Source: Candidatus Saccharimonadales bacterium
Lineage (GTDB): Bacteria; Patescibacteriota; Saccharimonadia; Saccharimonadales; Saccharimonadaceae
Length of the DNA stretch: 64,000 bases
Assembly (NCBI GenBank): GCA_039928925.1
Contig: JBDSSF010000001.1
Coordinates: forward strand, 267,837-331,836
Direction of reading: 5' to 3'
The notes beneath the pieces are model-generated. The model was not told the origin of the DNA and ran no database searches. It was given only the letters and a program-made list of their open reading frames with translations. This document shows, piece after piece, positions 12,351-45,542 of this stretch. The stretch's first letter is position 1, and the number at the start of each line of letters is the position of its first letter. The position numbers and the translations under genes are program-made.

Positions 12351-13337
12351 TCAATTTCGCCGAGAAGCCTTTTTCTTATAATCAGTTTCATCTTCAATTT
12401 CATGTCCAAGAATTTCTTCGATTAAGTCTTCAATCGTTACAATACCAACAATATGGTCATCACGCTCGATTGGAATTAAGTGAGTATGCGCACTTATGAA
12501 TTTACGGAACATAGTATCAAGCGCGGTCATACTTCCAACTATTTTAACGGGATGAAGTGAGAGATCATCAACTGCGATTGGATCATCAAAATCATATGCA
12601 AGTAAATCTTTAATAAGAAGTACACCATAGCAACGTGTGAGATTTGTATCGAAAATTGGTATGCGACTGCGACCTTCACGTTTAATTTTTTCAATAGTTT
12701 TTGTATCGATAATGTAATCTGGGGTTACCCAAAAAACATCGTCAATACTTGTCATAATATCTCGAACTCGTTTTTCGCTCATTTGGAGGACACTTTTAAT
12801 AATTTCAGCCTCGTCTTCATCAAGTTCACTTTCATCGGCATCGATCTGCTCATTGATAATGATGCCCAGTTCACCGCGTGAATGTAGCTCTTGCTTGTGA
12901 TTCCCAACGAGCTTATTAAGTAGTAATTCGAGCGGACGAGAAATAATATATGTTACAAAGACGAGAAACTTTAAAAATGGTGCAAAACGTGCAGTAAATG
13001 CGAGTGCATTTTTAGCAAAAAGTGCTTGTGGGATGACTTCACCAAATATGACAATAAGTAGCGTGCTCACAATTCCGGCGATAAGACCATGAAAATGATC
13101 ATCGAGCACAAGAGATGTAGTCGAGATAACGGCCACGTTGGCAAGCAGGATGCTTGATAGCGTCAGGTGACTTTTACGACGAAGAGGGAGGACACGCTTA
13201 GCGCTTACGTCACCTAGTTTCGCTTTTCGCTTTAGGTCACCAAGTGATAAAGCCATGAGTGATATGTTGAGACCAGAGCAGAGCGCCGATATCGTAATAA
13301 GCGCTAATATTTCAAAAATAAGAATGAGGATACTCAT
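12351..13337 (-). CDS. CNNM/DUF21 transmembrane domain + CBS-pair protein (hemolysin/CorB-like, no CorC_HlyC domain)
   Basis: N-terminal DUF21 pattern (ALCSGLNISLMALS, multiple TM helices) followed by a CBS-type region (VRDIMTSIDDVFWV..., IVGIVTIEDLIEEILG). Confidence 0.85.
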   Translation of the reverse strand: MSILILIFEILALITISALCSGLNISLMALSLGDLKRKAKLGDVSAKRVLPLRRKSHLTLSSILLANVAVISTTSLVLDDHFHGLIAGIVSTLLIVIFGEVIPQALFAKNALAFTARFAPFLKFLVFVTYIISRPLELLLNKLVGNHKQELHSRGELGIIINEQIDADESELDEDEAEIIKSVLQMSEKRVRDIMTSIDDVFWVTPDYIIDTKTIEKIKREGRSRIPIFDTNLTRCYGVLLIKDLLAYDFDDPIAVDDLSLHPVKIVGSMTALDTMFRKFISAHTHLIPIERDDHIVGIVTIEDLIEEILGHEIEDETDYKKKASRRN

Positions 13338-13363
13338 GTAACTGAATAGGAATTATATAGTTG

Positions 13364-13837
13364 TTAGTCTTGTTTGTATAGACTTATTCTTGTTGATGAA
13401 GCGCTTGATTGTCGAACAACACAGACAGGCTCGAAGCCTTCGCTATCTTCTATTTCTGGCGACGCACAAACGATAACACCGAGGTATTGCCCACTTGGTA
13501 GTGTTCTTTGAAATACAACCGGACCAGCGCATTTAACAGCGTATTCACCCATCTGTTTCTTTATACTGATTATTTCAGCGTTAGTTTCCTCAATAGATTC
13601 ACCAAGCTCCCCGCGTAGTCGATGACTTATTTCATTAATTGATGAATCATCATCAGGTTCAGCCGACTTCCCGTGTTCTTCTTCGAAAATGATTTTTGCT
13701 TGCTGTTCGGGTTGATTGCCCATGCATGTCATGATATTTTCATCATTTTCTGTCTCAAGATCGGCAATTTCAATCATTGCGTTGTGCTGCACTGGACATG
13801 CCGCACAAACACGGGGGTTCATTAATTCCATAATCAC
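13364..13837 (-). CDS. Hypothetical acidic protein (157 aa)
   Basis: ORF track entry only; same strand and directly upstream of the CNNM gene. Confidence 0.4.
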   Translation of the reverse strand: MIMELMNPRVCAACPVQHNAMIEIADLETENDENIMTCMGNQPEQQAKIIFEEEHGKSAEPDDDSSINEISHRLRGELGESIEETNAEIISIKKQMGEYAVKCAGPVVFQRTLPSGQYLGVIVCASPEIEDSEGFEPVCVVRQSSASSTRISLYKQD

Positions 13838-13970
13838 ATATTTATATCATATTTACTGATCATTCTCAACTTGCAGATGAATTTATGTGCTAAATATTCT
13901 TTCCGTCCAAGGTAGTATTAAGACGAGCTAGGTAAAGTGACTAAAGAACACATATGAAAGGAGGGCATGA

Positions 13971-14234
13971 ATGAATAAAGTACAAAGACTAATTCTAGGA
14001 TCGGCCAGTATTGGAATATTTAGTGTATCAAGCATCAGTGCTATGGCAGCGCTTGCTGCAAGTACAGTGACATCCTCTACTGGGAGGACATCGAAAATAG
14101 TTGAATCGGAGGCTGTAAATACGACGAATACGATCGATGCTTATAGTGACGATACTAGTGAGGAAACAATCGCTATGGATATAACAGGCATAAGATCACT
14201 AAGTGATAGTCGGCAGAAAGAGGAATACAGCTAA
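13971..14234 (+). CDS. Small secreted hypothetical protein (87 aa)
   Basis: Strong SD (AAGGAGGgcatgaATG); signal-peptide-like N-terminus ending AMAALAAS. Confidence 0.5.
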   Translation: MNKVQRLILGSASIGIFSVSSISAMAALAASTVTSSTGRTSKIVESEAVNTTNTIDAYSDDTSEETIAMDITGIRSLSDSRQKEEYS

Positions 14235-14283
14235 CCAGTTATGGTTTTTATTTTTATTGAAATGCAGTAGGATTGAAAATACT

Positions 14284-14697
14284 ATGGGCATACAAGGCGG
14301 AGAACTCACTACACTAGCTGCATATAATAGACAGCTAGAACAGCGTATTAAAGAACAGGACATTAACAACGTTGATGTCTATAGCGCCATGCTACGACTT
14401 ACAAGTAAAAAGTATGAGGCGCTGAGGCTACCTGTAATGTTAGATAATATTACAGCTCGACCAAGCGGTGTCTATGTCGTAAGCCTCTGCATGCTCGATG
14501 AACATTTTAAGAAAATGCTGACAACAGGGGGCATGATGATTGATGGTATGTGGATGCCAGCAAGAGATGACCCTTTTAAATTTGAACGTCCAATAAACGG
14601 TAGAGCGGTTGAAGGATACCTTACGGACTATTCGGATGGCGTTGATATAAGTGAACTTATGAATAAAGAACTGATTTCTGCTTCAGTAACTGAATGA
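14284..14697 (+). CDS. Hypothetical protein (137 aa from internal ATG)
   Basis: ORF 14203..14697; I prefer ATG 14284 because it avoids overlap with 13971..14234; no domain recognised. Confidence 0.4.
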   Translation: MGIQGGELTTLAAYNRQLEQRIKEQDINNVDVYSAMLRLTSKKYEALRLPVMLDNITARPSGVYVVSLCMLDEHFKKMLTTGGMMIDGMWMPARDDPFKFERPINGRAVEGYLTDYSDGVDISELMNKELISASVTE

Positions 14698-14849
14698 TGA
14701 ATTGCTATAATACTATAATTATGTTATAGTTTTATCATAATCTAAACCTTTTTTGCATAGAATTGCTCGTTTACAATAATTGTCATTTTATATCCACTCA
14801 TCAAGTGGACCACATACTTTTGTGGAAGCGACTACAGATAGGAAATCAC

Positions 14850-15803
14850 ATGACTTGGTGGAATCGTCGCAAGACGGTACCCGAAGCAACACCCGTTTTT
14901 GCCACCGCGCAGCCAATGCCGTGCAAGACCATGGTGACGGGGCCGATGCAGATCAGGCGCTCTGTGCAGTACGGATACGATACCGGCAAGCCAGCCGTTG
15001 ATCTTTCCAAGCACGCTCCAGAAACCGTCCAGCTTGTGAAGGGCCCGTACTACGCGGCTCAAGCGGCACTGAAGGCGGTAGGACTCTTCGGTGTCCGAAT
15101 CAAGATCATCGTGATGGTCGATGGTTCGGGCTCGATGAAAGGGGCCTACGCGGAGCAGGATGTGCAGAAGATGCTCAATAGGGCACTCGGGTTCGCTCTG
15201 AACCTGGACCCGAGCAAATCCATCTCTGTATTCACATACGGCACAAGTGTTAGCCGTCCGGTTCTCATCGAACTCTCGAACTACAGCAGTGCGGGCACCC
15301 TGATCAAACCTGACTTTGGGTGCACAAACATGGCACTCGGGTTCGAGCAGGCTCTCGATATCGCTCGCAATTCCGAAATCCGGCTACCGACCATGGTGAT
15401 CAATATCACCGACGGTGATCCCAACGATGGGGTCAGTAAGATCATGGCTCAAAAGGCCATGACTCGCTCCGTAGTAAGTTCGTCATGCGAACCAATTCAG
15501 GTCAAGAACTTGGCTGTGAAGAGTGTTCCGTATCTCGAAACGATCGACGATCTACAGAGTTGGTACGAGGTTCGTAAGGACAACAGTGGAAACACAGTCC
15601 ATGATCATGAGGGTCACGTCATCCTCGACTACAATCCGAAAGGAGTACGACTGATCGACAACGTTGATTCACAGAAGGTCAGTCCTGGGGACTCGGACCA
15701 GAGATGGGCCGAAGCATTTGCCGGCGAGGTGCGTGACTGGCTCGATGCTAGTGCACAGGTTGGTTTGATCACTGGAGTTCCAGGGATCGACCGTCGCTAC
15801 TGA
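14850..15803 (+). CDS. von Willebrand factor A (vWA) domain protein, TerY-like, high-GC
   Basis: MIDAS motif VMVDGSGSM, later GCTNM and INITDGDPNDG; GC content jumps exactly at ATG 14850, while upstream sequence is AT-rich. Confidence 0.8.
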   Translation: MTWWNRRKTVPEATPVFATAQPMPCKTMVTGPMQIRRSVQYGYDTGKPAVDLSKHAPETVQLVKGPYYAAQAALKAVGLFGVRIKIIVMVDGSGSMKGAYAEQDVQKMLNRALGFALNLDPSKSISVFTYGTSVSRPVLIELSNYSSAGTLIKPDFGCTNMALGFEQALDIARNSEIRLPTMVINITDGDPNDGVSKIMAQKAMTRSVVSSSCEPIQVKNLAVKSVPYLETIDDLQSWYEVRKDNSGNTVHDHEGHVILDYNPKGVRLIDNVDSQKVSPGDSDQRWAEAFAGEVRDWLDASAQVGLITGVPGIDRRY

Positions 15804-15825
15804 TCGACATCTGTACGTCGCTGAC

Positions 15826-15858
15826 GATACACCCGGAGAAACGCTCTTCGGGTGTATC
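15826..15858 (+). terminator. Hairpin after the vWA gene
   Basis: GATACACCCG-N13-CGGGTGTATC. Confidence 0.5.
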
Positions 15859-16013
15859 GAATGCAACATTTTTATGATTGGATATAAGATGATATTTGAG
15901 CAAATTGATATATAACATACTTTAAAATACTATTGATCATAAAGCATAAATATGATATTATACTAATTATTGAAACAATAGTTTCATGTAGCCAAGTACA
16001 GAAAGAAGACGTC

Positions 16014-16634
16014 ATGTCTCTCTCGCTCATCAAGGGAACGCCCGCCGAGCCGCTCGTCAACCCCAACGGACACGCCGTCAGCAAGCTGACCGTCGGTGTC
16101 GGCTGGGACAAGTCGTCCGGCGGCAAGAAGGGCTTCGCAGGAATGCTCAGCCGTGCGAAAGGGATCGATCTCGATCTCGCCGGTCTGGTGTACGACAACA
16201 CCGGGTCGGGCGTACGAGTCTGCGGCTTCGACACCCCTGATCTCTTCGGCGGCGGCATGCACCACACTGGTGACAACAAGACCGGAAAGGGCGACGGAAT
16301 CGACGAGTCGATGGAAATCGATCTCGACCGACTGCCGCCCAACATCACCGGGATCGTCGTCACCCTGAACGCCTTCAAGAAGGGTGTGTCGTTCGCGAAC
16401 ATCGCCGGCGCCGACTGCTTCTTCTCCGAGAACTTCGGGAAGGATCTGTTCGGCCTCGGCCAGTTCGCCGTCCCGATCGACGATGCGACCAAGAACACCA
16501 TCTTCATGGCGCGCATCCTGCGCGACGCGACGAGTGGTGGTTGGACGATCAAGGTCGTCAATGCCATGGGCTCAGCGATCAACGGTGACCCGCGTCAGCT
16601 CCTCAGCGTCGGAAAGGCCTACCTGACGGTCTGA
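16014..16634 (+). CDS. terD: TerD-family (tellurium-resistance/Ca-binding TerD domain) protein, high-GC
   Basis: MSLSLIKG..., KLTVGVGWD, GIDLDLAGLVYD, HTGDNKTGKGDGIDESMEIDLDRLPPNITGIVVTLN match the TerD-domain pattern; G/C strongly preferred in third codon positions. Confidence 0.85.
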   Translation: MSLSLIKGTPAEPLVNPNGHAVSKLTVGVGWDKSSGGKKGFAGMLSRAKGIDLDLAGLVYDNTGSGVRVCGFDTPDLFGGGMHHTGDNKTGKGDGIDESMEIDLDRLPPNITGIVVTLNAFKKGVSFANIAGADCFFSENFGKDLFGLGQFAVPIDDATKNTIFMARILRDATSGGWTIKVVNAMGSAINGDPRQLLSVGKAYLTV

Positions 16635-16698
16635 CCGCTTCGCTAAGCGAGCAACGAGTCACCGCCTAGAAAACGAAAACTCAATCTGAAAGGCTACA

Positions 16699-16722
16699 CG
16701 GCCATCCCTTCTGGGATGGCCG
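16699..16722 (+). terminator. Terminator hairpin after terD
   Basis: CGGCCATCCC-TTCT-GGGATGGCCG followed by CTTTCAATTTC. Confidence 0.55.
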
Positions 16723-16755
16723 CTTTCAATTTCAGAAATAAGATAGATCTTTAAT

Positions 16756-16776
16756 GTACTATACAAAGTATAGTAC
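16756..16776. promoter_or_regulatory. Operator-like perfect palindrome overlapping the -35 region upstream of the FMN reductase gene
   Basis: GTACTATAC-AAA-GTATAGTAC; TATACT -10 box at 16783-16788. Confidence 0.4.
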
Positions 16777-16870
16777 TGGTGGTATACTTAGATTAGTAAT
16801 ACAGCTCGTGACCGAATGGTCCGCCGTATGCAAAGTTATTTATACAATCTAATCGAAGGAGTTATTACTA

Positions 16871-17413
16871 ATGTCAAACATTCTTATCGTCACAGGTAGC
16901 GCGCGCGAACTTAGCGTCGGCAATAAAATTGCAACAATCGTTCAAGAAGAACTTCAAAATTATGATGACGTCACCGCAACTATCGCAAATTTAAAAGAAA
17001 TTGATTTGCCATTCTTTGACAATGAAACAGCTCCATCAGCACCAAACTTTTCGACTAGTAATGAAAAAGTACTTTCATGGACAAAGATGGTAGCGGATGC
17101 TGATACAGTTCTTCTCCTTATGCCTGAGTACAACCACTCACTTAGCGGCATTCAGAAAAATGCAATCGACTGGATATCTGCAGAATGGAATGAAAAACCA
17201 GTTAGTATTATTGGTTACGGATGGGGTGGCGCGGCGCTTGCTCATATCACCGCTAAGGAAGTATTTAGTAACCTCAAAGCAAAGTTACTCCCAACAACAA
17301 CACACCTTCACTTCATGAAACAACTAAACCCAGATGGTTCAGCTGTAGATGGTCAGGATATCGCTGAGCAGATTAAATTAACTCTCGATGAACTTGTCGG
17401 CAACCTAAAGTAG
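16871..17413 (+). CDS. NAD(P)H-dependent FMN reductase (flavodoxin-like fold)
   Basis: ILIVTGSAR..., LLLMPEYNHSLSGIQKNAIDW family pattern; SD GGAG upstream. Confidence 0.8.
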   Translation: MSNILIVTGSARELSVGNKIATIVQEELQNYDDVTATIANLKEIDLPFFDNETAPSAPNFSTSNEKVLSWTKMVADADTVLLLMPEYNHSLSGIQKNAIDWISAEWNEKPVSIIGYGWGGAALAHITAKEVFSNLKAKLLPTTTHLHFMKQLNPDGSAVDGQDIAEQIKLTLDELVGNLK

Positions 17414-17437
17414 CCATCACCACGTCGTTATATGGAA

Positions 17438-17466
17438 AAGGCCACTCGAAACTATCGAGTGGCCTT
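17438..17466. terminator. Bidirectional terminator hairpin between convergent genes
   Basis: AAGGCCACTCGA-AACTA-TCGAGTGGCCTT, 12-bp perfect stem. Confidence 0.6.
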
Positions 17467-17491
17467 CGCCTTTTCTGCCTTGTTCTCCGCA

Positions 17492-17887
17492 TCAGTCGAT
17501 TTCGAGACTTTCAAGAAACATCTCGACAGTTAACTGGAATGCCTGGTGTGCTCGGACCCACGGGAAACATGAAGCAACCATGAGGTAGTGGTTGACGAGC
17601 GCCGGCCCTCGTTCGTACTCGTCAGCTCGTTGGAGACAGCGAATGAGATACTCTTCGCTGTCATCCTGCATGTTTTTCCGTAGCGTGATAAACCTCTTGT
17701 CACGCACGCTGACACTCGCAGCATCAGCTACAGTGTCAATGAATGGCATCATGTAGCATGACTGAATGGCTAATACGGACATAGCCATCCACGAGTTCTG
17801 AGCTGGAATCAATACCGGTGCGGGCCTTGGTTCCGATGGATCTTTGTAGCCGTCTGGGTACCACAGCCCTTCTTTGTAATGAACCAC
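17492..17887 (-). CDS. Hypothetical 131-aa protein, high-GC cassette
   Basis: ORF track entry; GC visibly higher than flanks; hairpin directly downstream; no domain recognised. Confidence 0.5.
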   Translation of the reverse strand: MVHYKEGLWYPDGYKDPSEPRPAPVLIPAQNSWMAMSVLAIQSCYMMPFIDTVADAASVSVRDKRFITLRKNMQDDSEEYLIRCLQRADEYERGPALVNHYLMVASCFPWVRAHQAFQLTVEMFLESLEID

Positions 17888-17947
17888 GACTTCTCCTTCG
17901 GGTAGGCATGAAAAGACGATAACTAGTATAATACAAGTATTTATTTA

Positions 17948-18733
17948 TTATGTCAAACGTACACTAAGACCTAGCCCGCCGTAAACTTTACATATAAAAA
18001 CTGGTATTTCTGGCGTGCTCATTTCGGTGCTAAATGCATAGCCCAACTCATTAAAATGCCAGAGATTTTTAGTAGACTCAATCCGATTACGGATGAGCCA
18101 ACTTGCAAAAGCACCTCGCGCAACTTTGGCATGAACTACAACAAACTTAGGCTCATTTGTTTTTGGATCAATAGTTAGAAATCTTGGTGATATGATATCT
18201 GCACCTTTAAGATGCGGCAAAACTACTTTGGTATATTCAGCGGCTGAAAGATTGATGATCGGAACATCACTTGGTAGTATTTTAGCTATGCTATCTCCCC
18301 AGTATGTATAGAGATTTTTGTATCGCTCATCACTTAATCGATAGCCCATTTCTAGTCGGTACGGCATGATGCTGTCTAACGCACGCAGTACCCCGTAGAG
18401 TCCAGATAAAATATAAAGATGATCATTTGCATACCGTCGATCATTATCAGTAAATAACTGGGATTGCAGTCCGCTATAAATGTCTCCCAAAAAAGCATCA
18501 ATAGCAGGTAGTTGCTCATGCGGATTAGTGTTCCATGATCTCATCATAGTCTGTGTAGTTGTAGCCATAGGAGACGAAAGTTGCATCGGCTTCATTAGTT
18601 GATCTGCTGAAAGAGTTGAGACAAAATTCGCTAATTCTACTGCGTTCTCGAGCAGTTGCGGTGCCTGATACGTGTTGTCGTCAGACTTTCTGCGCTGCAT
18701 TGTTTTGGATGAATGAAGCAAGATTGTTAGCAT
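17948..18733 (-). CDS. yaaA: Peroxide stress protein YaaA (UPF0246/DUF328)
   Basis: MLTILLHSSKTM, FLGDIYSGL, YILSGLYGVLRALDSIMPYRLEMG, INLSAAEY, HAKVARGAF family pattern. Confidence 0.85.
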   Translation of the reverse strand: MLTILLHSSKTMQRRKSDDNTYQAPQLLENAVELANFVSTLSADQLMKPMQLSSPMATTTQTMMRSWNTNPHEQLPAIDAFLGDIYSGLQSQLFTDNDRRYANDHLYILSGLYGVLRALDSIMPYRLEMGYRLSDERYKNLYTYWGDSIAKILPSDVPIINLSAAEYTKVVLPHLKGADIISPRFLTIDPKTNEPKFVVVHAKVARGAFASWLIRNRIESTKNLWHFNELGYAFSTEMSTPEIPVFICKVYGGLGLSVRLT

Positions 18734-18790
18734 AAGACTATCTTAACAGGAAACAAACAGTGTAAAATAGGGTAATAGAGGAGGTACAGT

Positions 18791-19129
18791 ATGGGAGCAC
18801 AGCAACAACGAACGGATGCCGGCACAATACGTCAGACAGCGAGCGGCAAACGGCAAGAAGCAGTAAAGTTTGTTCAAGCCGCGGCCGATGCTAGCGCAAA
18901 TGCACAATATGACCAAGCGCAGGCACATACATCTCAGGCTGATAAGTTAAATGGCGAAGCAGCTACACTCGAGCAACAAGCAATGGAGATGGAGAAACTA
19001 GCCGATTCATCCGAACAAGAAGCAGAGCGACTCGAACAAGAAGAGCAAAAGTTGCGACAACAAGCTGACGATATCAAACGCAAGAAAGATGAACTACGCG
19101 GTGATAGTGGCTCATTTGGTATATTTTAA
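18791..19129 (+). CDS. Hypothetical coiled-coil protein (112 aa, Q/E/A-rich)
   Basis: Strong SD (GAGGAGGtacagtATG); stop overlaps the next start (TAATG). Confidence 0.55.
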   Translation: MGAQQQRTDAGTIRQTASGKRQEAVKFVQAAADASANAQYDQAQAHTSQADKLNGEAATLEQQAMEMEKLADSSEQEAERLEQEEQKLRQQADDIKRKKDELRGDSGSFGIF

Positions 19130-19698
19130 TGGACGAAAAATTGACAATAGCCGTTCTCGGTGGCACTACACGGGTCCAGCGAGAATCGATAAAAGCCGCA
19201 CATTACGTTGCTGAATTTGGTAGGCAACTGCAAGGTGTTGATATCATATTTGTTGATCCCAAGGATCTCAATCTACCAGGTGACGGCAATGATCCAGAAG
19301 CAAAAGATCCAAAGTATAGTGAGATTACCGCAAAAGCCGATGCATTTTTCATTGTTACACCAGAATATAACCACAGTTTCCCCGGTAGCTTAAAACGGAT
19401 GCTTGATAGCGAACTTGGTAACTATAACCACAAACCTGTTGCTCTTGCGGGTGCGAGTAATGGTAACTGGGGCGGCATACGTGCGGTAGAGTCGTTAGTG
19501 CCAGCCATTCGCGAGACTGGACTCGTTGTCCTTAGTTGGGATGTGTATTTCCCATATGTGCAAAATATATTTAACGAAGATGGATCAATCAAAGATGAAT
19601 TTGCTGATCGATATAATATAAGTCTCAGTAAGCTTTATGCCGAACTGATATGGATGGCAAAACTACTCCGTCAAGGGCGACGCGAACTAACTTCTTAA
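19129..19698 (+). CDS. NAD(P)H-dependent FMN reductase, second copy
   Basis: IAVLGGTTR..., FFIVTPEYNHSFPGSLKRMLD; translationally coupled to 18791..19129. Confidence 0.8.
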   Translation: MDEKLTIAVLGGTTRVQRESIKAAHYVAEFGRQLQGVDIIFVDPKDLNLPGDGNDPEAKDPKYSEITAKADAFFIVTPEYNHSFPGSLKRMLDSELGNYNHKPVALAGASNGNWGGIRAVESLVPAIRETGLVVLSWDVYFPYVQNIFNEDGSIKDEFADRYNISLSKLYAELIWMAKLLRQGRRELTS

Positions 19699-19757
19699 AA
19701 GAATCGAGCGCATCTCTTTACTCTGCGGCGTCAAAGTAAAGAGAGGAATATTATAAC

Positions 19758-19787
19758 TTGCATTATATAAATATGCAGTGTTATAAT
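19758..19787 (+). promoter_or_regulatory. Putative nusA promoter
   Basis: TTGCAT-N18-TATAAT. Confidence 0.45.
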
Positions 19788-19800
19788 GACTAGAGTACAT

Positions 19801-19824
19801 TCCGGCCAGCAGGTCGGATTTTTT
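19801..19824 (+). terminator. Intrinsic terminator/attenuator inside the nusA leader
   Basis: UCCGGCC-AGCA-GGUCGGA (one G.U pair) followed by TTTTTT, located between the promoter and the nusA SD. Confidence 0.5.
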
Positions 19825-19846
19825 CATAGAAAAGGAGAACTATAGT

Positions 19847-20980
19847 ATGGAAGATATCAATGTAAAACAACTTACTCTCGCGGTTCGAACAATCGCTGAA
19901 GAGAAAAATCTACCTGAAGAAGTAGTCTTATCCGTTATTGAGCAGGCAATTGCTGCTGCGTGGCGCCGCGACAATGGTGAACGTGACCAAGAGGTTCGCG
20001 CTGAGCTAAATGTTAACGACGGTACTGCTAATGTATTTGTTGCTCGTGAAGTTGTTGAAGAAGTTGGATCCGACGCTGTTGAGATTAGTCTTGATGATGC
20101 AAAAAAAGTCAAAAAAGACGCTGTTATCGGTGATAGCATTGAAGAAAAACACGAAGTAATTAGCTTTGGCCGTGTCGCTGCCCAAACCGCAAAGCAAGTT
20201 GTATTGCAGCGCCTTCGTGAAGCAGAACGTGAAGTTGTGCTTGAAGAATATGAAGACAAGATAGGTACAATCGTTACTGGTACTGTCCAGCGTGTTGAAC
20301 CACGTGTCGTTCGTGTAGAACTTGGTAAGGCAACGGGTATTATTCCTCAGTCAGAACAAATACAAGGCGAATTTTATAGCATTGGGAGCCGTATCAAAGT
20401 ATTCATCAAAGATATTGAACGAGACAACCGTGGCCCACAGCTTATCCTTAGCCGTGGTAATGAAGCATTTGTTGAGTTCCTGTTCCGCCAAGAAGTTCCT
20501 GAAATGGAATCTGGTGCTGTCGAGATCAAAGCTATTGCTCGTGAAGCTGGTCGTCGTACTAAGTTAGCAGTTGCAAGTACTGTTCCAGGTGTTGATCCTG
20601 TTGGAACATTTGTTGGTGGTCATGGAACACGTGTCCAGGCCGTAATGAACGAAATTGGTGATCAAGAGAAGATTGACATCATTACATTTGATGAAAATAA
20701 CGAACAGTTCATCAAGAACGCTCTTAGCCCAGCTGAAGTAGCAAAAGTACAGATTGATGAAGATAAAAAACGCGCAACTGTCTATGTCAATGAAGACCAG
20801 CAATCAATCGCTATTGGCCGCGGTGGTCAAAACGTTCGCCTTGCAAGTCGACTAACAGGATACGAAATTGATATCGAAACTGCGGTAAAAACAGCAGATA
20901 AGCCTGCGAGCGAATCAAAGCCACGAAAGAACATCGAAGATGATCTTCTTAGTGCGGTCGAAGAATCAACTGAAGAATAA
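19847..20980 (+). CDS. nusA: Transcription termination/antitermination factor NusA
   Basis: N-terminal domain, S1 (IVTGTVQRVEPRVVRVELG) and two KH regions (VDPVGTFVGGHGTRVQAV, IGRGGQNVRLASRLTGYEIDI). Confidence 0.92.
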   Translation: MEDINVKQLTLAVRTIAEEKNLPEEVVLSVIEQAIAAAWRRDNGERDQEVRAELNVNDGTANVFVAREVVEEVGSDAVEISLDDAKKVKKDAVIGDSIEEKHEVISFGRVAAQTAKQVVLQRLREAEREVVLEEYEDKIGTIVTGTVQRVEPRVVRVELGKATGIIPQSEQIQGEFYSIGSRIKVFIKDIERDNRGPQLILSRGNEAFVEFLFRQEVPEMESGAVEIKAIAREAGRRTKLAVASTVPGVDPVGTFVGGHGTRVQAVMNEIGDQEKIDIITFDENNEQFIKNALSPAEVAKVQIDEDKKRATVYVNEDQQSIAIGRGGQNVRLASRLTGYEIDIETAVKTADKPASESKPRKNIEDDLLSAVEESTEE

Positions 20981-44654: not shown

Positions 44655-45542
44655 ATGACACAAAAAAAGCTATCACAGAAAGAAATGGATGAAATTACTA
44701 ATCGCTCTCACGAAGAAGCAGAGCGCGATTTTAAAGATTTCAAAGAACATATTGCGCGTGGTGAATGCGGAATTTGCGACGAACCTTTGAGTAGCTTTGA
44801 TGAAATGGAGCCATGTATGCATTGGTTATTAATGCCACCGGGTTTTCGAAAAAAACACATGAAATCTGTATTCGAGATATTCACTTATGACCGCATCGAA
44901 GCATATCTTCGATGGTATGCAAATTCACACAGTCCACTTATGAACATAAATGACCTAGTTGAGGAGCACGACGGAACAAAATTGCGCGCTCTCACAATTA
45001 AACATGGTCAACTGGAATGGTCATTTTCATTTGCACAAGGATGCTTGGAAGGTAAAGACGGAAATCATGGACCGCATTACCACTTTCAAATGCGCATTGA
45101 TGGCAAGCCATTCCATAACTATAGTGACCGTCATATCAAAATGAACGACTATGAACTTTGGATGTTCGATATTGATATTGGTCAAAACCCTCAATTCAAA
45201 CGTAACCAAGGCTTTGGAGCCGGAATGCAAAGTACAGTTGACAATATTGAAACTGGCGAACTATTAAAAACCTTCAAATACACCGAAGACTATGAAAATG
45301 CAGCCTTCAATACCAGTACGATTGTCATGGCCGAAGAAGGTAAAACTATTGATGTCGATGAAATAATTGCTATGTATAAAATTGCGCGTGAAACTGGTAC
45401 ACCTGTTCATCAGCAAATAAAAAACCTGAAAAACGTCGCTACAACAAAAGTCATTGTCGAGCCTGGAGAGGGTGTGCCGCATCCTGCTCAGCGCAACCCT
45501 GTGCGTCCAGGCCGTAAGAAAAATAAAGACAAAAAACACTAA
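44655..45542 (+). CDS. Element ORF, hypothetical with Cys/His cluster (295 aa)
   Basis: GECGICDEPLSSFDEMEPCMHW zinc-ribbon-like; HGPHYHFQ; basic C-terminal tail. Confidence 0.5.
   Translation: MTQKKLSQKEMDEITNRSHEEAERDFKDFKEHIARGECGICDEPLSSFDEMEPCMHWLLMPPGFRKKHMKSVFEIFTYDRIEAYLRWYANSHSPLMNINDLVEEHDGTKLRALTIKHGQLEWSFSFAQGCLEGKDGNHGPHYHFQMRIDGKPFHNYSDRHIKMNDYELWMFDIDIGQNPQFKRNQGFGAGMQSTVDNIETGELLKTFKYTEDYENAAFNTSTIVMAEEGKTIDVDEIIAMYKIARETGTPVHQQIKNLKNVATTKVIVEPGEGVPHPAQRNPVRPGRKKNKDKKH

Follow-up and report, generated by a model that had tools for sequence, protein, structure and literature searches.

A vWA gene and a TerD-family gene as probable separately acquired Ter cassettes in a low-GC Saccharibacteria genome

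Two neighbouring genes, encoding a protein with a von Willebrand factor type A (vWA) domain and a TerD-family protein, form a G/C-rich patch in the low-GC genome of a Candidatus Saccharimonadales bacterium (GenBank assembly GCA_039928925.1). They lie in a stretch of 64,000 nucleotides that is referred to below as the window (positions 267,837 to 331,836 of contig JBDSSF010000001.1). The genome under study (G000) comprises 984,634 bp in five contigs with a G+C content of 42.3% and a contamination of 0.27%; the genomes of its relatives span 0.5-1.3 Mb. Labels of the C1-C5 type denote contigs of G000, the window being C1:267837-331836 on a contig of 388 kb. Other genomes (congeners, family, class) carry G-labels, and loci or contigs from other genomes carry L-labels.

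The horizontal acquisition of both genes is supported, because they are accessory, rare in the family and class, and located in a region of variable content. Taken as a whole, the following explanation appears to us the probable one. Each gene would constitute a single-gene cassette, composed of an AT-rich promoter and leader, a G/C-rich coding sequence (CDS) and a terminator hairpin, and two such cassettes, acquired separately, would have been inserted side by side in the variable region between corC and nusA. The unit that moved would have included the AT-rich regulatory flanks. The immediate source would be an accessory gene pool common to Saccharibacteria and bacteria belonging to the candidate phyla radiation (CPR), with an older root in high-GC, Actinomycetota-type bacteria, to which the G/C-rich codons and the closest relatives outside the CPR point. 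The two products may form a split TerF-like module.

Composition and flanks of the two genes

Among the 940 open reading frames (ORFs) of G000, the median G+C content at third codon positions (GC3) is 0.34 (standard deviation 0.08). The TerD gene stands at the top of this distribution (z=+5.9), and its native codon-usage score is the fifth lowest of all ORFs (z=-4.95). The vWA gene deviates less strongly, with a GC3 z-score of +3.5 (19 ORFs are equal or higher) and a codon-usage z-score of -2.84. The composition along the locus is as follows:

14698-14849, spacer before the vWA gene, G+C 0.30
14850-15803, + strand, vWA CDS (TerF-C-terminal/copine type, 317 amino acids; PF10138, metal-binding site and structure model), G+C 0.546, GC3 0.64
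15804-15860, region after the vWA gene, including a hairpin at 15825-15859, G+C 0.54
15861-16013, AT-rich spacer, G+C 0.24
16014-16634, + strand, TerD-family CDS (206 amino acids; PF02342, 2KXT and structure model), G+C 0.620, GC3 0.84
16635-16724, 3' region, including a hairpin at 16699-16722, G+C 0.56
16725-16870, downstream sequence of native composition, G+C 0.32

The G+C content rises at ~14800-14860 and drops past the hairpin at 16699-16722, while G/C-rich codons begin at codon 2 and continue up to the final codon of the genes, whose ends show no decay. A patchwise replacement of the coding sequences by host DNA was ruled out on this ground. A first-pass annotation, made from the sequence alone, had described much of this picture. 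Its hand counts (40/60 G+C at 16021-16080 against 20/60 at 12361-12420) are exact, and the G/C-rich third positions, the compositional steps at 14850 and 16722 and the AT-rich region before each gene were all recovered in our measurements. The 210-bp spacer that it placed between the genes is correct in length and corresponds to the whole intergenic region (15804-16013), of which 153 bp are AT-rich.

Both spacers contain sigma-70-like sites (8 in the region, compared with 2.8±1.8 in shuffled sequences), and each gene is followed by a hairpin. The following elements, several of them predicted from sequence, were distinguished:

14698..14849, + strand, vWA upstream region, 30% GC, with sigma-70-like sites at 14702-14730 and 14752-14780
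14778-14804 (left) and 15871-15897 (right), 27-nt imperfect inverted repeat bracketing the vWA cassette, z=3.1
14794-14808 and 14810-14825, two small hairpins in the vWA 5' leader, CCACT...AGTGG and CCACA...TGTGG
14824-14845, + strand, leader motif GGAAGCGACTACAGATAGGAAA before the vWA gene
15825..15859, + strand, hairpin after the vWA gene, 15-nt arms, 93% complementary, probable terminator
15861..16013, + strand, putative TerD promoter and leader, 24% GC, TTGATC-17-TATTAT with TG at 15933-15961
15990-16009, + strand, TerD leader AGCCAAGTACAGAAAGAAGA
16685..16736, + strand, extended TerD 3' hairpin with a 10-bp core at 16699-16722, then CTTTCAATTT

These flanks have homologues beside related genes elsewhere. 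The vWA upstream region is homologous to those of L072 (score 102, z=20.5), L071, L069 and L054, and the terminator hairpin together with the sequence that follows it aligns with L072 (z=10.6), showing compensatory changes. The arms of the inverted repeat are found at equivalent positions in L072 (z=3.4) and L054 (z=4.8) and could mark the ends of the cassette. The TerD upstream region is homologous to those of L001 (z=7.5) and L075 (z=5.4); in a control with native sequences, 1 of 158 AT-rich upstream regions of G000 scored as high, and this one is probably that of the TerD gene itself. The TerD 3' element aligns with those of L023 and L003 (z=14.1 and 12.0, with the exact 13-nt block CTGAAAGGCTACA), L001 (z=9.4) and L075 (z=4.7), and its stem has undergone compensatory changes (CGGCCATCCC/GGGATGGCCG versus CGGCCACCCC/GGGGTGGCC). 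None of 400 downstream regions of G000 reached the score of these homologues.

The flanks of an actinobacterial TerD gene (Aquipuribacter) are unrelated to those of the TerD cassettes, and the copies with homologous flanks lie at unrelated sites in other low-GC Saccharibacteria and CPR genomes. Because the flanks are homologous to those of CPR copies and not to actinobacterial ones, each gene is best regarded as a putative mobile promoter-gene-terminator cassette of the CPR pool. As the AT-rich flanks would have been part of the moved unit, the accessory pool of Saccharibacteria and CPR bacteria is the most likely immediate source, judging from these alignments.

In the vWA leader, the two small hairpins show compensatory differences in L072, L071 and L054 (e.g. 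CCGC...GCGG), and single-sequence folding gave the same two-hairpin layout in three of four leaders, with weak z-scores. RNAalifold applied to five vWA leaders returned no supported consensus structure (-0.74 kcal/mol), and the structure is taken as a lead only. An Rfam scan of 14600-16900 at E<=5 yielded two chance-level matches and nothing else, including no hammerhead.

A leader motif, AAGC-N-A-NN-ACAGA(A/T)AG, was noticed just 5' of the start codons of the vWA gene (14824-14845), the TerD gene (15990-16009, in a looser form) and a third ORF (44667-44687), which starts at 44685 inside a tRNA-Leu integrative element. In its strict form the motif occurs twice in the 0.98-Mb genome. It also precedes the TerD genes of L001 and L075 and the vWA genes of L072, L071, L054 and L052, and it may serve mobile cassettes as a common leader for translation or regulation. 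A metagenome scan with the 15-mer GGAAGCGACTACAGA gave chance matches only (0 of the 80 loci listed encode vWA or TerD), and no further copy of the three spacers was found elsewhere in G000.

The two proteins and their relatives

The vWA protein matches PF10138 (vWA-TerF-like; 5e-12, 46.8 bits, cut-off 29.4), while its score with PF00092 (22.5 bits) falls under the cut-off of 23.8. The metal ion-dependent adhesion site (MIDAS) is complete (DGSGSM; D91-x-S93-x-S95...T159...D188) and invariant in 21 relatives. The AlphaFold model (predicted local distance difference test, pLDDT, 86.6) has the Rossmann-like vWA fold, along with ~25 disordered residues at the N-terminus, a ~20-residue helix and a beta/alpha extension at the C-terminus. 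The best solved folds are those of the plant copine BON1, the RGLG1/2 vWA domains and other vWA domains (E 1e-8 to 1e-6). The PF10138 match, the MIDAS and the resemblance to the BON1 and RGLG folds identify the protein as one of the TerF/copine type, not TerY. Proteins of the TerY type, as Anantharaman, Iyer and Aravind are said to have defined it in 2012, have a PF00092-type vWA domain and adjoin a PP2C phosphatase and a Ser/Thr kinase; no kinase or phosphatase domain was present among the scanned neighbours of the pair. Of the earlier description, the MIDAS-containing vWA domain remains and the TerY-like label had to be given up.

The second protein was correctly recognized in the first pass as a TerD-domain protein. 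Its residues 1-183 match PF02342 (6.6e-15, 55.5 bits, cut-off 25.3), it is similar in sequence to TerD of Klebsiella pneumoniae (PDB 2KXT; 1.4e-16), and a genome-wide search of G000 revealed no other TerD locus. The model (pLDDT 81.7, predicted TM-score 0.83) shows the TerD beta-sandwich, and Foldseek retrieved 9A6R_B, 2QNG, 2QZ7, 3IBZ and 2KXT (E 3e-13 to 8.5e-10). The Ca2+ sites of K. pneumoniae TerD involve positions 40, 41, 42, 78, 79, 89 and 29, 82, 84, 88 (PMC8779313). Their equivalents in the window protein are D52, L53, D54, D87, N88, E98 and W31/D32, G91, G93, D97, all of them invariant in the subfamily; both predicted Ca2+ sites are present by alignment, with all ligand positions kept. 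The subfamily is small and sits on a long stem (length 1.88), with ~25-35% identity to canonical TerDs. It is distinguished by a basic insertion of ~10 residues (34-50; a low-confidence helix at 41-49) and by two substitutions in a loop, which reads TGKGDGIDE where canonical TerDs have TGEGDGDDE.

Both proteins score better with phage families than with Pfam (phrog_5359, 1.5e-20, for vWA; phrog_5698, 4e-29, for TerD). In the phage collection the vWA protein matched phages of Streptomyces, Gordonia and Rhodococcus only, and 28 of the 33 TerD matches were Streptomyces phages, with 26-36% identity in both cases. No NCBIfam model and no PADLOC defence-system model matched either protein.

The vWA subfamily is tiny, with 11 cluster representatives at E<=1e-30 among 1.84 billion, and was seen only in metagenome contigs and CPR metagenome-assembled genomes (MAGs); plasmid matches are limited to 24-32% identity. 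In the vWA tree the window copy is sister (97/96) to the solo vWA genes of L002 and L068, two syntenic low-GC genomes whose housekeeping genes are colinear with C1:73.7-82.2 kb of G000. The other relatives (L052, L054, L071 and L072) adjoin canonical TerD genes, whose products are ~25% identical to the window TerD. In L072, a TerD-vWA-TerD-vWA array is located directly upstream of TerC-TerC-ZIP, and the TerC encoded there is 72% identical to the native TerC of G000.

The surroundings of the solo vWA genes of L002 and L068 were compared with C1:77.6-79.2 kb of G000. The cassette lies between a Cu-oxidase_4 gene and metRS, which are adjacent in G000. Just upstream of these two genes, G000 has a different G/C-rich islet (C1:77.7-78.5 kb), with ksgA on the other side of it. 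In L002 (2585-3226) and L068 (8391-9026) the solo vWA gene is followed downstream by a membrane protein gene (211-213 amino acids, GC3 0.60-0.62 vs 0.36) with no homologue in G000 and no recorded Pfam family.

The nearest relatives of the window TerD are encoded by solo genes at unrelated sites in low-GC genomes, namely L001 and L075 and, at a greater distance, L023, L003 and L055, all with a GC3 of 0.76-0.86. In L001, a 470-kb MAG contig, the gene is placed between an RHS protein gene and MazG/def. The closest proteins overall occur in low-GC CPR-type contigs, at 67% identity for TerD and 47-50% for vWA. A third TerD subclade is actinobacterial and consists of a protein of Aquipuribacter hungaricus (Intrasporangiaceae) and one from a contig of 76% GC (GC3 0.96-0.97, 57% identity), and a Cellulomonas paralogue is the sister of the subfamily. 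The nearest non-CPR TerD relatives are accordingly Actinomycetota copies, which makes a high-GC, Actinomycetota-like ultimate origin plausible at the level of sequence. For vWA, a sample of 400 genomes from the class of the Aquipuribacter genome yielded nothing above 35% identity, the matches being at most 34% identical and covering the vWA core only; the Aquipuribacter genome itself has no vWA relative.

The combination of vWA and TerD genes present in the window was seen nowhere else. Since the two genes differ in GC3 (0.64 vs 0.84, a gap of 0.20), have different nearest relatives, and have relatives that each occur without the other gene, they do not represent the single acquired pair that the first-pass annotation had supposed.

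Insertion site and origin of the cassettes

In the comparison of sister genomes that had been proposed as a check, neither gene was found in the 10 congeners searched. TerD occurs in 5 of the 401 class genomes and in 10 of the 401 family genomes (both counts include G000), and the same TerD subfamily in one other family genome, G866 (= G441), at 54% identity; vWA was found in 1 of 36 other family genomes. The pair combines deviant composition and codon usage, a patchy distribution in close relatives and insertion between conserved flanking genes. The genes around the pair include:

12351..13337, - strand, corC/CBS-type transporter gene, conserved left border, 86% identical in G005 and 56% in G002
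16871..17413, + strand, NADPH-dependent FMN reductase gene, neighbour outside the cassettes, PF03358 3.9e-27, GC3 0.35, native
17948..18733, - strand, YaaA-type peroxide stress protein gene, native, NF002542 1.3e-60 (below the curated cut-off of the model), in the same place in G005
19847..20980, + strand, nusA, conserved right border, product 90% identical to NusA of the MAG Candidatus Saccharibacteria bacterium MCT-ROC-43

The interval is empty in the congener G002, where 230 bp separate the corC-like gene from nusA, while in G005 ~5 kb of other genes separate corC from the shared yaaA (an acidic-paralogue gene, RadC-like, Fic-like and others, named from their translations only). The corresponding interval of G000 (13338-19846) holds the Ter cassettes and redox genes (two FMN reductases and yaaA), and the neighbours of the cassettes have native composition. 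With an empty site in one congener and different cargo in another, the corC-nusA interval is a variable region and a cargo hotspot in the genus.

The codon composition of the cassettes poses a problem of its own. In the measured Saccharibacteria and CPR-type loci TerD genes have a GC3 of 0.70-0.95, and every TerD copy found in the Saccharibacteria family or class is more G+C-rich than its flanks. TerDs of low-GC Methylococcales (Proteobacteria), Flammeovirga and Cytophagaceae (Bacteroidota) and Bacillus have host-like values (0.30-0.50), and therefore the gene family has no intrinsic need for G/C-rich codons. Synonymous sites between cassettes are near saturation (same-codon fraction 0.55-0.67 vs 0.52-0.57 by chance). 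The TerD genes of L001 and L075 are 49% identical at fourfold degenerate sites and have a GC3 of ~0.8, with flanks 72-82% identical. Fourfold differences between G and C, compared with those between G or C and A or T (S/W), number 19 vs 26 for L001-L075 and 15 vs 14 for the window copy and L075; in a native control, the methionyl-tRNA synthetase (MetRS) genes of L002 and L068, they number 4 vs 38. The high share of G<->C differences fits divergence in a GC-favouring regime. Vertically related pairs (the TerDs of L023 and L003, the vWA genes of L002 and L068) display plain decay, with a native-like ratio of G<->C to S/W differences of ~0.2 and GC3 dropping in parallel, to 0.60 vs 0.36 in the flanks. 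The persistence of G/C-rich codons at saturated sites is not easily explained by neutral decay, and it calls either for repeated re-entry from an unsampled G/C-rich reservoir with the same AT-rich flanks or for selection of G/C-ending codons. We tentatively entertain the possibility that the G/C-rich style is a state kept up while AT-flanked cassettes move among low-GC Saccharibacteria, not the fading trace of an import.

Actinomycetota are the hosts of Saccharibacteria, and genes of host origin would naturally be sought in GC-rich islets. A direct and recent import of the vWA-TerD pair from the high-GC actinobacterial host of the epibiont would account for the actinobacterial-style codon usage (GC3 0.84), the G<->C-rich synonymous differences, the Aquipuribacter TerD and the similar copy in the 76% GC contig, the sister position of the Cellulomonas paralogue and the phage matches, which are confined to actinophages for vWA and come mostly from Streptomyces phages for TerD. 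We nevertheless judge such an import unlikely. It is at odds with the AT-rich flanks, homologous to those of other CPR copies and not to actinobacterial ones, with the closest proteins being those of low-GC CPR-type contigs, with the lack of vWA relatives above 35% identity in Aquipuribacter and the 400 class genomes, and with the GC3 gap and the different relatives of the two genes. Of the horizontal acquisition from a high-GC donor that the first-pass annotation had proposed, the acquisition stands; a direct high-GC donor appears unlikely, and its suggestion that the host might be the donor becomes improbable for the immediate source. The phylogenies that it had recommended for finding a donor clade point to Actinomycetota as the nearest non-CPR relatives for TerD, and for vWA lead back to metagenome contigs and CPR MAGs. 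In TM7x, according to McLean et al. (2020; PMC7427843), genes derived from the host leave no strong signal.

Alternatively, the genes may be long-resident accessory genes of Saccharibacteria whose G/C-rich codons are actively maintained, by synonymous selection or a coding-specific process, in which case their composition would be uninformative about a recent donor. The contrast between coding sequences that are G/C-rich from codon 2 to the stop and homologous flanks of 24-34% GC a few bases away, the retention of a high GC3 by the nearly saturated L001-L075 pair and the excess G+C of all TerD copies in the family and class speak for this possibility. It appears rather doubtful in view of the vertically related pairs that fit neutral decay, the host-like codons of TerDs in other low-GC phyla, the very sparse distribution of the genes and the lack of a known mechanism. 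It seems improbable that the genes are morons, accessory genes carried by a phage and either left behind by it or copied from it. The better scores with phage families, the many actinophages with solitary homologues and the moron-like layout with own promoter and own terminator are offset by the low identity of the phage copies (26-36%), the native composition of the neighbours and the absence of phage structural, integrase and repressor genes from 13.4-19.8 kb; the actinophage homologues each stand alone and have no neighbourhood in common. The very sharp compositional boundaries could also be produced by an assembly chimera or contamination, with a high-GC fragment misjoined to the contig. 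This is very unlikely, hardly worth retaining, because a spacer of 24% GC divides the G/C-rich sequence into two blocks, the contig measures 388 kb, the contamination of the genome is 0.27%, the boundaries coincide with start codons and terminators, and homologous junctions between flank and CDS recur in independent assemblies of other samples (L001, L075, L023, L072).

Several observations weigh against the separate acquisition of two cassettes from the CPR pool. No integrase, transposase, att site or flanking direct repeat was found in 13300-19900. The inverted repeat around the vWA gene is weak in each single locus (z 3-5), and terminal inverted repeats were not found for the TerD cassettes. 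The TerD tree does not resolve the three subclades, the CPR copies falling on one side of a branch with a support of 39/0. Long circulation in low-GC genomes should erase G/C-rich third positions, and these have not decayed. Finally, TerC, the proposed partner, is not adjacent to the TerD and vWA genes in G000. Considering all of the evidence, acquisition of two separate cassettes from the CPR pool, with an older high-GC root, is still the explanation that we regard as probable; the direction and the route of transfer are what we infer from composition, distribution, site and flank homology.

G/C-rich islets occur elsewhere in G000 as well. About 28 ORFs with a GC3 above 0.60 are dispersed as small islets, among them, outside the window, C1:13.4-16.1 kb, C1:155.8 kb, C1:182.5 kb, C1:206.7 kb, C3:189.7 kb, C3:284.3-286.4 kb, C4:47.3-49.7 kb and C4:60.0 kb. 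Several of the islet ORFs encode secreted or surface-type products whose signal peptides resemble those of actinobacteria and whose linkers are PT-rich. A 686-amino-acid repeat protein (GC3 0.84) is one example, and others are lipoprotein-like ORFs immediately before the native TerC-ZIP pair, on its upstream side, and a GNAT acetyltransferase, the only one of these to match a Pfam family.

Relation to known Ter systems and implications

TerF has a TerD domain first, fused to a C-terminal vWA domain, and copines combine C2 domains with a vWA domain. The window shares with TerF and with copines/RGLG a PF10138-type vWA domain with a full MIDAS and a Ca2+-binding-type beta-sandwich encoded next door. 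It differs from TerF proper in that the domains are on two ORFs, 210 bp apart with a hairpin and a promoter-like region between them, and in that vWA comes first; furthermore, vWA and TerD have separate histories here, and vWA has its own N-terminus, helix and C-terminal extension. Compared with TerDs of Ter clusters (K. pneumoniae 2KXT; Streptomyces coelicolor 3IBZ and 2QZ7; 9A6R, a 199-residue chain labelled SCP2), the window TerD has the same beta-sandwich domain (TM-score 0.63-0.80) and common Ca1/Ca2 ligand positions, including the GDN-TG-GDG-DE loop, and departs from them in its identity of ~25-35%, the basic insertion, the two loop substitutions and its place in a solitary cassette instead of a terZABCDE operon.

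The terZABCDEF clusters of IncHI2 plasmids and enterobacterial islands, as well as actinobacterial Ter neighbourhoods, have protein families in common with the window, and the association with TerC is shared with the relatives G029, G034 and L072, related Saccharibacteria in which TerD/vWA genes adjoin TerC. G000 does not possess a canonical ter operon: it has one TerD locus, no TerB or TelA was found among the scanned neighbours of the pair, TerA and TerZ are absent from the locus, and TerC and ZIP are native genes on another contig (C4:50923-52762, native composition). TerC itself is present in all 10 congeners. The cassettes resemble phage morons and other self-contained cassettes in having their own promoter-like region and terminator, unrelated gene neighbours and deviant composition; unlike morons, they lie outside a prophage and have flanks that distant carriers share in conserved form, and the vWA cassette is bracketed by a weak inverted repeat. 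The locus is a module of a known kind, Ter, in an unusual mobile and compositionally persistent form. In the literature searched, no paper linking TerD to Saccharibacteria genomes was found.

PMC8123226, and references cited in PMC8779313, associate the ter operon with tolerance of tellurite and oxidative stress and with resistance to phages and colicins. TerD and vWA of the window may form a split TerF-like, Ca2+- or divalent-metal-dependent module for stress response or envelope sensing, which would act with the native TerC-family membrane protein and the ZIP transporter. A divalent-cation-dependent stress or envelope module with TerC is favoured, by analogy, because of the split TerF layout, the adjacency of TerC in relatives, the native TerC-ZIP pair and the redox-stress neighbours. 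We infer in the same way that the genes are expressed, that TerD, vWA and TerC are partners, and what physiological role they may have.

The locus shows that a simple host-import reading of GC-rich islets can mislead, and points to genes that travel as expression cassettes within the CPR pool. If the proposed origin is true, a foreign codon style would outlast the prediction of neutral decay. If the codon style is indeed maintained, some coding-specific process, such as selection acting at synonymous positions, would be needed in a reduced epibiont genome, and calls of host transfer based on composition would be misleading for Ter cassettes. Should the travel as cassettes and the persistence of the codon style hold, the cassettes would offer a system for asking how single genes spread between ultra-small bacteria without classical mobile-element genes, what holds codon composition off its genomic equilibrium, and what role Ter-type Ca2+/metal modules (TerD, copine-like vWA and TerC) may have in an epibiont.

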